DNA of 64,000 nucleotides, taken from NCBI GenBank assembly GCA_963835065.1, contig CAWIEK010000053.1, positions 416,001 through 480,000 on the forward strand, read 5' to 3'. This DNA comes from an uncultured Chthonomonadaceae bacterium. GTDB lineage: Bacteria > Armatimonadota > Chthonomonadetes > Chthonomonadales > Chthonomonadaceae. Below the pieces are notes generated by a model. That model was not told where the DNA came from. It worked only from the letters and a program-made list of their open reading frames with translations, and searched no databases. This document shows positions 55,690 to 55,977 of the stretch, one piece after another (the first letter of the stretch is position 1; every line of letters starts with the position of its first letter). The position numbers and the translations under genes were made by a program.

Positions 55690-55977
55690 ATAGCCGAAAA
55701 ATGGAAACCTTTCCTGTTCCACTTCGTCTAAGTGTATATTCACGTCTACATAATAGAGATTGCTAACGAGCCAGGTGGCGGGCCGTTGAAAGTTCGGAGT
55801 TCCTTCCAACTCTCAACAATCTAACCTGGAAGGGAGGTGCTGGAAGATGCCTGTACACTATCCCCGTTCGCCCTGACGCTTACGAGGTCACGACGCCTCT
55901 CTCCTACAACCAGACACAACGAGACATCGGGCTGGAAGCGCTGTATTGCCAGGATTTCGACGATCTCTCTACATATC
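55690..55977 (+). ncRNA. Structured non-coding element copy 2 with ECF-like promoter
   Basis: Matches 18771-19060 reverse complement; GGAAAC-N16-CGTCTA at 55703-55730; T-rich tail. Confidence 0.65.

Follow-up and report, generated by a model that had tools for sequence, protein, structure and literature searches.

A 64,000-nt stretch of contig CAWIEK010000053.1 (hereafter the window) from an uncultured Chthonomonadaceae bacterium (GCA_963835065.1) holds two copies of one sequence cassette, and the question that they raise is what kind of element they represent. An earlier note on this DNA had read them as a duplicated, rod-like, stress-induced non-coding RNA, possibly of the 6S or Ms1 kind. 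The homology that it had noticed is real: positions 55690–55977 of the forward strand (copy 2) and 18771–19060 of the reverse strand (copy 1) are 89% identical across 247 nt (BLAST E 2e-88). The two copies lie in opposite orientation and, as had been stated, in differing gene neighbourhoods: copy 2 has a C39 peptidase/RHS region on one side and an esterase gene on the other, and copy 1 sits behind an alginate-export-family gene. Both also have promoter-like boxes separated by a diverged spacer, and a T-rich tract at the end, as described before. Here we compare the two copies with their relatives and find that the unit is very probably a structured RNA that is translated and kept by selection.

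Family size and range

The element is far more than duplicated. The source genome (G000; 8.0 Mb, 71 contigs, 92% complete) contains 162 full copies by nhmmer, nearly all intact, and a 3′-part profile finds the same number, its scores showing a gap with nothing between E 1e-5 and 0.68. Two remnants with the 5′ part only were found in G000, and no decayed 3′ domains. A covariance model detected at least 13 copies in one genome of the same genus (G001) and at least 47 in another (G002), both being lower bounds with 150 candidates scored per genome. Among 42 genomes of the family, matches were confined to these three, with none in the other 39. Among 151 genomes of the phylum (23 candidates scored in each, under strict filters), the source genome matched and the 150 others did not. 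A deeper covariance search, with E values up to 1, gave matches in none of five genomes, and BLAST found copies in 3 of 61. The Armatimonadota, which the earlier note had proposed to search in this way, were thus the right place to look, the copies being in three genomes of a single genus whose genes are about 72–90% identical to each other. As the family was found in one genus only, it does not answer a general need.

The full-length matches among 80 titled public records are all labelled uncultured Chthonomonadaceae. A 16-base pattern scan of genomes gave at least 111 loci, 8 of them full among the matches listed, and pattern scans of metagenome and viral contigs gave no matches (the first pattern was validated on fetched loci). 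Against Rfam, the window had no match at the gathering score, copy 2 had only chance matches at E up to 10, and ten diverged copies gave one chance match. The view of the locus as a conserved RNA element that has its own promoter and belongs to no Rfam family is therefore supported, the promoter being seen as sequence boxes. A literature search, whose coverage excluded most subscription journals and supplements, found no description of the element. Judged by sequence comparison, the element is new as a combination of features, and from these features we infer its function.

Anatomy of the cassette

We compared the anatomy of 212 copies, comprising all 162 from G000, all 13 from G001 and 37 of 47 from G002 (one truncated copy and nine unfetched ones were left out). 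From 5′ to 3′, the cassette consists of A-tracts, a bipartite promoter-like motif, a hexamer, a leader, a Shine–Dalgarno sequence, a short frame, 7 nt, a hairpin (H1), a linker of A and C, a 3′ domain of 55 nt and a T tract. In the window, the parts lie as follows.

55641–55703, forward strand: copy 2, phased A-tracts, possibly UP-element-like, which most of the listed copies have upstream of their −35 box
55704–55730, forward strand: copy 2, promoter-like boxes (−35 box 55704–55709, −10 box 55726–55730), of a class present in 150 of the 162 G000 copies
55744–55749, forward strand: copy 2, second conserved hexamer behind the −10 box (differing by 2%, the preceding bases by 32%)
55750–55829, forward strand: copy 2, variable, subfamily-specific 5′ leader with 7-mer repeats, from family comparison
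55830–55837, forward strand: copy 2, strong Shine–Dalgarno sequence, complementary to the 16S 3′ end (2% difference)
55847–55876, forward strand: copy 2, nine-codon frame ending Arg-Ser-Pro, stop codon 55874–55876, from the frame census
55877–55883, forward strand: copy 2, 7-nt spacer of fixed length and free sequence, from the spacer census
55884–55899, forward strand: copy 2, hairpin H1, five pairs and a 6-nt loop (99% of cells paired; also present in an unfitted alignment)
55900–55920, forward strand: copy 2, unpaired, A/C-rich, indel-tolerant linker, from the alignment
55921–55975, forward strand: copy 2, 3′ domain with an outer stem (55921–55926 with 55964–55969), an inner stem, a large loop and a conserved tail, from the alignments
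55937–55951, forward strand: copy 2, invariant 15-nt loop segment with one C/T position free (the other 14 positions unchanged in all 212 copies)
55976–55991, forward strand: copy 2, pyrimidine/T tract, a possible 3′ end, not called as a terminator
18758–19075, reverse strand: copy 1, whole cassette, with the same anatomy and no ISAs1 end found beside it
Copy 1 parts, reverse strand: −35 box 19046–19041, −10 box 19023–19019, Shine–Dalgarno sequence 18919–18912, frame 18902–18873, H1 18865–18850, loop 18810–18796

The gap between the −10 box and the second hexamer is mostly 11–15 nt. In sequence this hexamer (55744–55749 in copy 2, 19005–19000 in copy 1) is a repeat of the −10 box, and it also looks like the tail at the 3′ end of the RNA.

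Mini-frame and its fixed distance to H1

Frames were counted in 209 copies, three G002 copies in which the pattern missed the hairpin being dropped. In 202 of them the distance from start to stop is divisible by three, across six length classes (24, 27, 30, 33, 45 and 48 nt). Most frames have 8 or 9 codons and encode peptides rich in proline and serine. The last codon specifies proline in 200 of the 202, with all four proline codons in use, and the third-last residue is arginine in 183 (by four codons), leucine in 12 and histidine in 6, the ending being mostly Arg-x-Pro-stop. All three stop codons occur (TGA 173, TAA 28, TAG 1). The spacer from stop codon to hairpin is 7 nt long in 204 of the 209 copies and has 70 different sequences; with the final proline in the P site, H1 starts at base 14. 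Third-position excess over the whole frame is absent in 15 copies of the miniature-transposon type discussed below (0.12, 0.12 and 0.095), which limits the constraint to the start and the last three codons.

The earlier note had read the element as a candidate non-coding RNA and had pointed to a 2-nt indel between the window copies. The indel exists and does exclude a long shared frame, but the nine-codon frame with its strong Shine–Dalgarno sequence lies upstream of it in both copies. The note had also drawn a hairpin at the stop codon. Of the 209 copies, 119 can close this hairpin (105 by exact pairing, 14 through a wobble pair), and in most others it is broken; its supposed loop is part of the fixed-length spacer, just behind which the covarying hairpin, H1, begins.

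Two coding readings of what follows the stop were rejected. Selenocysteine read-through fails on the 29 of 202 frames that end in TAA or TAG. A coding 3′ domain or +1 frameshift product does not agree with a stop-to-loop distance that is off frame in 54 of 209 copies, nor with the lack of a Pfam match; the +1 frame is open for 33 codons in 69% of copies and is unconserved. The codons of the frame pair with the Shine–Dalgarno sequence more strongly than synonymous shuffles do in G000 (−12.6 versus −11.3 kcal/mol), with almost no excess in G001 and G002. Such pairing of C-rich codons with the Shine–Dalgarno sequence would account for some of the codon pattern and may prevent ribosome loading. 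Among the long frames of G001, five of six start with CTG, GTG or TTG, and one has an internal stop.

RNA structure and the invariant loop

In a 52-row alignment, 93% of the cells of the predicted stems are paired, as against 40–55% in slid controls, and 23 cells are changed on both sides, against 7.8 ± 2.3 in shuffles; this alignment was fitted to the model, and the two-sided changes come from a few related clades. Counted by pair, only 4 of 18 are changed on both sides, a number that equals the mean of the shuffles (4.0) and is reached by 351 of 500 of them. The two-sided changes lie in H1 (one pair, in 7 of 52 rows) and in the outer stem, one pair of which is unpaired in 23 of 52 rows, and the inner stem shows wobble-type changes only. 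The T-rich end occurs in 140 of the 162 G000 copies, in 25 of 37 from G002 and in only 2 of 13 from G001. The three bases behind the loop form a genome-specific signature, present in 153 of 162 copies in G000, 2 of 37 in G002 and none of 13 in G001.

The base pairs cited by the earlier note are different from these conserved ones. Both window copies fold no better than shuffled sequences (z = +0.66 and +1.36), contrary to a rod-like fold. The 5′ arm of the proposed pairing between the ends is present in only 44 of 212 copies and absent from 168; each of the combinations described as compensated occurs once, in the two window copies themselves, whereas 25 copies are mismatched. A rod-like, 6S/Ms1-type RNA that binds RNA polymerase would at least find its role not visibly taken, as the Rfam model finds no 6S RNA in G000, G001 or G002. 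Given the missing Rfam match, the positive folding scores, the unconserved end pairing and a translated-type frame inside the RNA, we find this identity barely credible.

A tRNA-derived element was also considered and rejected: the best local scores, including a resemblance of the loop to tRNA-Gly(GCC), gave p = 0.06–0.60 (six copies, 200 shuffles each). The loop has no match with up to three mismatches, on either strand, to rRNA in three stretches (16S and part of one operon region). Guide or bridge RNAs (TnpB, IS110) have a variable guide, whereas the conserved loop of the element is invariant.

Promoters and gene context

Strict matches to the promoter-like boxes are concentrated in the family, 76 of 82 falling in copies. 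A further 169 promoter-like sites lie outside copies, 108 of them outside called genes, and share no clear theme. A second bipartite promoter-like motif heads 18 copies (1 in G000, 13 in G002 at loci L205–L222, and 4 in G001 at loci L049–L058) and occurs at four other intergenic sites in G000 (C22:11260, C41:18654, C49:253203 and C49:291157). The boxes are of a putative ECF type, as earlier labelled, and it is from this label that the tentative stress-induced reading comes. Two weak-scoring sites resembling the element promoter (G000:C49:86056–86170, reverse strand) lie upstream of a gene that presumably encodes elongation factor P, a factor that relieves Pro-Pro stalling; we regard this as a lead only.

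The gene calls used for context are codon-based, with 72% coding, and are thus under-called. For 97 of 153 copies, the gene that follows lies on the other strand; in gaps between co-directional genes, antisense placement prevails by 60 to 25 (p 0.0002). Downstream neighbours on the same strand are unrelated to each other. Together, these three observations indicate that the copies are independent units and not leaders, and an attenuator or leader role was rejected on this evidence. Placement shows no replication-strand bias (68 versus 66). A likeness exists to the leader peptides TnaC and PheL (PMC3082878), in which a short frame likewise ends in Pro-stop, mostly CCC-UGA, and has a hairpin behind it. 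They attenuate the operon that follows, whereas the gene after the element mostly lies on the opposite strand and its +1 frame lacks conservation.

Independent transcription units, an invariant single-stranded loop and the concentration of strict promoter matches in copies would also suit a set of sibling trans-acting small RNAs, in which the loop base-pairs to RNA targets or acts as a protein sponge, the frame only stabilizes the RNA, and the promoters may titrate a sigma factor. Such families exist: the LhrC siblings (PMC4132741) have multiple copies under stress promoters and an invariant single-stranded segment; they differ in having a handful of copies and no known arrest-type frame or transposon wrappers. 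For the element we consider this reading quite improbable, as it leaves the fixed stop-to-hairpin geometry and the Arg-x-Pro-stop rule unexplained, and the loop matches neither rRNA, as noted above, nor, significantly, tRNA.

Miniature transposons as carriers

Copy 2 lies within a short transposon-like unit, and an insertion sequence of another family is found elsewhere in the window.

55548–55557, forward strand: left copy of a decayed 10-bp target-site duplication of copy 2 (right copy 56011–56020; 7 of 10 match)
55558–56010, forward strand: ISAs1-type miniature transposon (MITE) of 453 bp that carries the copy 2 cassette, its terminal inverted repeats paired
55558–55579, forward strand: left terminal inverted repeat of copy 2, paired with the right end
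55992–56010, forward strand: right terminal inverted repeat of copy 2, paired with the left end
35924–37284, forward strand: ISAzo13-family insertion sequence outside any cassette, with paired ends (PF07592, E 7e-105 for 36319–37257)

ISAs1 elements make a target-site duplication of about 10 bp. The left end of copy 2 is identical over 21 of 21 nt to ISAs1 elements that have transposase genes in G002, and copy 2 itself lacks a transposase. Twelve ISAs1-type end pairs are listed, of which one is spurious and 11 are real; 7 of the 12 have duplications matching at 9–10 of 10 positions. The ISAs1 transposase family had no match in G000, where one end adjoins what a motif suggests to be a short ISAs1 transposase fragment. 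A second kind of wrapper has ISAzo13-type ends, of which 52 of 109 end matches in G000 lie within 900 nt of copies, and the ISAzo13 element is the likely mover of this kind. At the level of sequence, ends and target duplications show that new copies have been delivered by both ISAs1 and ISAzo13 miniature transposons. The ISAzo13 transposase frame in the window seems split (35969–36307 and 36319–37257), and the element lies in an RHS region. Many minimal MITEs of 80–110 bp with ISAzo13-type ends are scattered across the genome.

In the 15 MITE-type copies, pairwise differences reach 15–25% in the terminal repeats and arms and 31% in the promoter spacer, against 0% in the −10 box, 2% in the Shine–Dalgarno sequence, 2% in the loop and 6% in H1. 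As the ends diverge while the boxes stay alike, it is the cargo and not the vehicle that is under selection. The wrappers would then decay, and selection together with gene conversion probably keeps the cassettes alike. That the whole family is a single MITE was rejected, as members lack one common end pair and the ends diverge faster than the cargo. MITEs carrying promoters or small RNAs are described in excerpts of a report on the Coxiella QMITE (PMC5896051) and a review (PMC10969869), and copy 2 resembles them in its terminal repeats, target duplication and lack of a transposase. The element differs from them in that the cargo rather than the ends is conserved, two unrelated wrappers are used, copy 1 has no ISAs1 end and copies repel each other.

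Terminal repeats, target duplications and mosaic, genome-specific variants would all be expected of a neutral MITE family whose members are alike through recent spread and gene conversion. We hold this to be highly improbable, since within the same elements the rates of functional boxes and of their neighbours differ more than tenfold, which largely refutes it; moreover, synonymous changes and all three stop codons preserve the Pro-stop ending across three genomes, and decayed copies are missing. The element is also a plain example of how two miniature transposons, unrelated to each other, have multiplied a host-type gene.

Spacing of copies along the chromosome

Copies of the cassette avoid each other. 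Only 1 gap below 8 kb was observed in G000 against 21 expected, and 4 below 10 kb against 26.5; gaps of 20–60 kb are in excess, and those above 100 kb are as frequent as in random placement (7 versus 6.5). The smallest of 36 gaps in G002 is 13.7 kb. Four control repeats show no avoidance, the largest, with 143 sites, having 25 gaps below 8 kb against 17 expected. This repeat is a palindromic family, its sites found by pattern, that often adjoins copies (for example at 19130–19215 of the window); leaders and gaps are filled with tandem 7-mers. Of 12 inverted pairs lying less than 20 kb apart in G000, 10 point towards each other and 2 away from each other (p 0.04).

Some sites are shared between species. 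Seven of 37 G002 copies and 1–2 of 13 G001 copies occupy the same site in the same orientation as a G000 copy (13 candidate pairs were inspected), an excess with p 0.005 or better for 6 of the 37. The G000 occupant of a shared site is never the closest relative, ranking 19–157 of 162 and belonging to other subfamilies. These swapped subfamilies are most simply read as gene conversion between old copies; repeated insertion at favoured gaps may be an alternative. Next to the orthologous genes of G001 and G002, whose surroundings are rearranged, neither window site has a copy.

The mutual exclusion of copies, which the control repeat does not share and which the movers do not explain, points to a local chromosomal effect. 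It is one reason to consider a positional element, that is, a local transcription–translation anchor, insulator or supercoiling boundary of which one copy is needed per 20–60 kb and a second nearby is harmful. The shortage of gaps below 10 kb, the excess at 20–60 kb, the different behaviour of the 143-site repeat, the large minimum gap in G002 and the reuse of sites across species all agree with it. We nonetheless consider it distinctly unlikely: long gaps above 100 kb are as common as chance predicts, G001 manages with 13 copies, the window sites are empty in the two relatives, and recombination between close repeats could yield part of the pattern.

Exclusion within 10–15 kb could equally be target immunity of a selfish element, whose expression would serve its own spread or persistence, for instance through a harmful stalling frame neutralized by the 3′ domain, or through an RNA for some mover. 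Its restriction to one genus, with copy numbers of 13, at least 47 and 162, the two transposon wrappers that carry it and the lack of decayed 3′ domains, expected if loop mutants are harmful, agree with this account, which we regard as unlikely. The transposition ends decay and the cassette does not, the ISAs1 transposase family has no match in G000, no partner gene stands beside the copies, the retron of the genus has its own, unrelated RNAs, and the promoters lie outside the RNA yet travel along, which speaks against RNA-based copying.

Proposed mechanism

Our preferred reading, held tentatively and at somewhat under an even chance, is that the element is a mini-gene RNA that catches a paused ribosome and so provides a stress-induced, dose-dependent ribosome hold. 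An RNA would be made from the stress-type promoter-like boxes, and a ribosome would load on the strong Shine–Dalgarno sequence and, after 8–9 codons, stall at Arg-x-Pro-stop with proline in the P site and the stop codon occupying the A site. H1, at the mRNA entrance, would buttress the paused ribosome, and the linker would position the folded 3′ domain and its invariant loop, protected, beside it, where the loop might bind the ribosome or a translation factor. The outcome would be a brake on ribosomes, or a store of them, under stress, in which many copies mean many RNAs at once. Transcription, translation, stalling and the loop as business end are predictions here, that of stalling being drawn from the known xSP-stop/xAP-stop and Pro-stop motifs.

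Several published observations bear on the stalling step. Peptides ending NSP-stop and NAP-stop stall while the A site contains the stop codon (excerpt of PMC10987492), and termination is slowed by proline before the stop codon (excerpts of PMC3082878 and PMC13410324). The ribosome covers about 12–15 nt past the P site (excerpt of PMC8012679). The start of H1 at base 14, on the border of this stretch, taken with known Pro-stop stalling, leads us to infer that a ribosome pauses where the mini-frame ends. Against the arrest model stands the length of the chain, since 8–9 residues are far fewer than in known arrest peptides, and most RAPP-like motifs tested alone gave no arrest (excerpt of PMC10987492).

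The closest peptide likeness is to these RAPP-like arrest peptides (xSP/xAP-stop), which share a C-terminal x-Ser/Ala/Pro-Pro before the stop and an arginine three residues from the end. Those described in the same excerpt are single leader frames upstream of secA, secDF or yidC and have an N-terminal localization signal (PMC10987492). The element, by contrast, has 8–9 residues, no signal, no regulated downstream gene, 162 copies and an RNA domain behind the stop. By analogy, it would work like a termination-arrest peptide, but it is no member of that group, as a regulated gene downstream is absent. The arrest peptides known so far affect, in cis, the gene that follows them, and the arrest-type frame here has no such gene; if a ribosome is truly caught, this would be a novel means of slowing or storing ribosomes, and also a minimal, eight-residue termination-arrest signal.

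A likeness also exists to tmRNA, in which a short coding stretch is joined to a folded one and which engages the ribosome. The element differs from it in its own Shine–Dalgarno/AUG start and its lack of a tRNA-like domain and of any Rfam or ARAGORN call as tmRNA; G000 has one tmRNA of its own elsewhere, and none lies at the copies. A type I toxin–antitoxin system was rejected, as the peptides are mostly Pro/Ser-rich with 8–9 residues and not of the hydrophobic membrane type.

A dosage function such as the ribosome hold does not explain why copies avoid each other within 10–15 kb. A wider reading, which we regard as doubtful, would join both aspects: free-standing arrest mini-genes would form a new class of RNA that uses the stalled ribosome as a platform, with up to 162 copies that exclude each other over about 10 kb and act as both ribosome trap and genome spacing element, hitch-hiking in unrelated miniature transposons.

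Retron and other loci

Type XIII (Mx162-like) retron RNAs and the msDNA-like repeats of Nannocystis (excerpts of PMC6868368 and PMC7736814) are among the known systems compared with the element. All three genomes of the genus encode a reverse transcriptase of this retron type. As no RNA gene had been seen directly before the reverse transcriptase, a trans-acting retron RNA suggested itself. The element was rejected for this role, as the msr-msd RNAs of the retron lie before its own operon and show no similarity to it; a profile of the retron RNAs matches only its own three copies. A partnership with the retron was rejected as well, the reverse transcriptase being present also in four family genomes of other genera, none of which matches the element model (three were searched deeply). 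The retron consists of a tandem msr-msd array before ARM, SWIM+BRCT and reverse transcriptase genes (L250:3985–4790, the reverse strand of G000:C50:59700–60520; also L245, L244 and L246). Its RNA copies number three each in G000 and G002, two in G001 and one in G020, and have the same scaffold with different long msd hairpins; in G000 the ARM gene seems split into several open reading frames. At another locus with a reverse transcriptase, L233 (G000:C49:680160–683777), the flanking frames resemble what we take to be cas2 and cas1. Finally, 16 tRNA genes, many of them divergent from the main set, lie within 2 kb at G000:C49:430274–432286.
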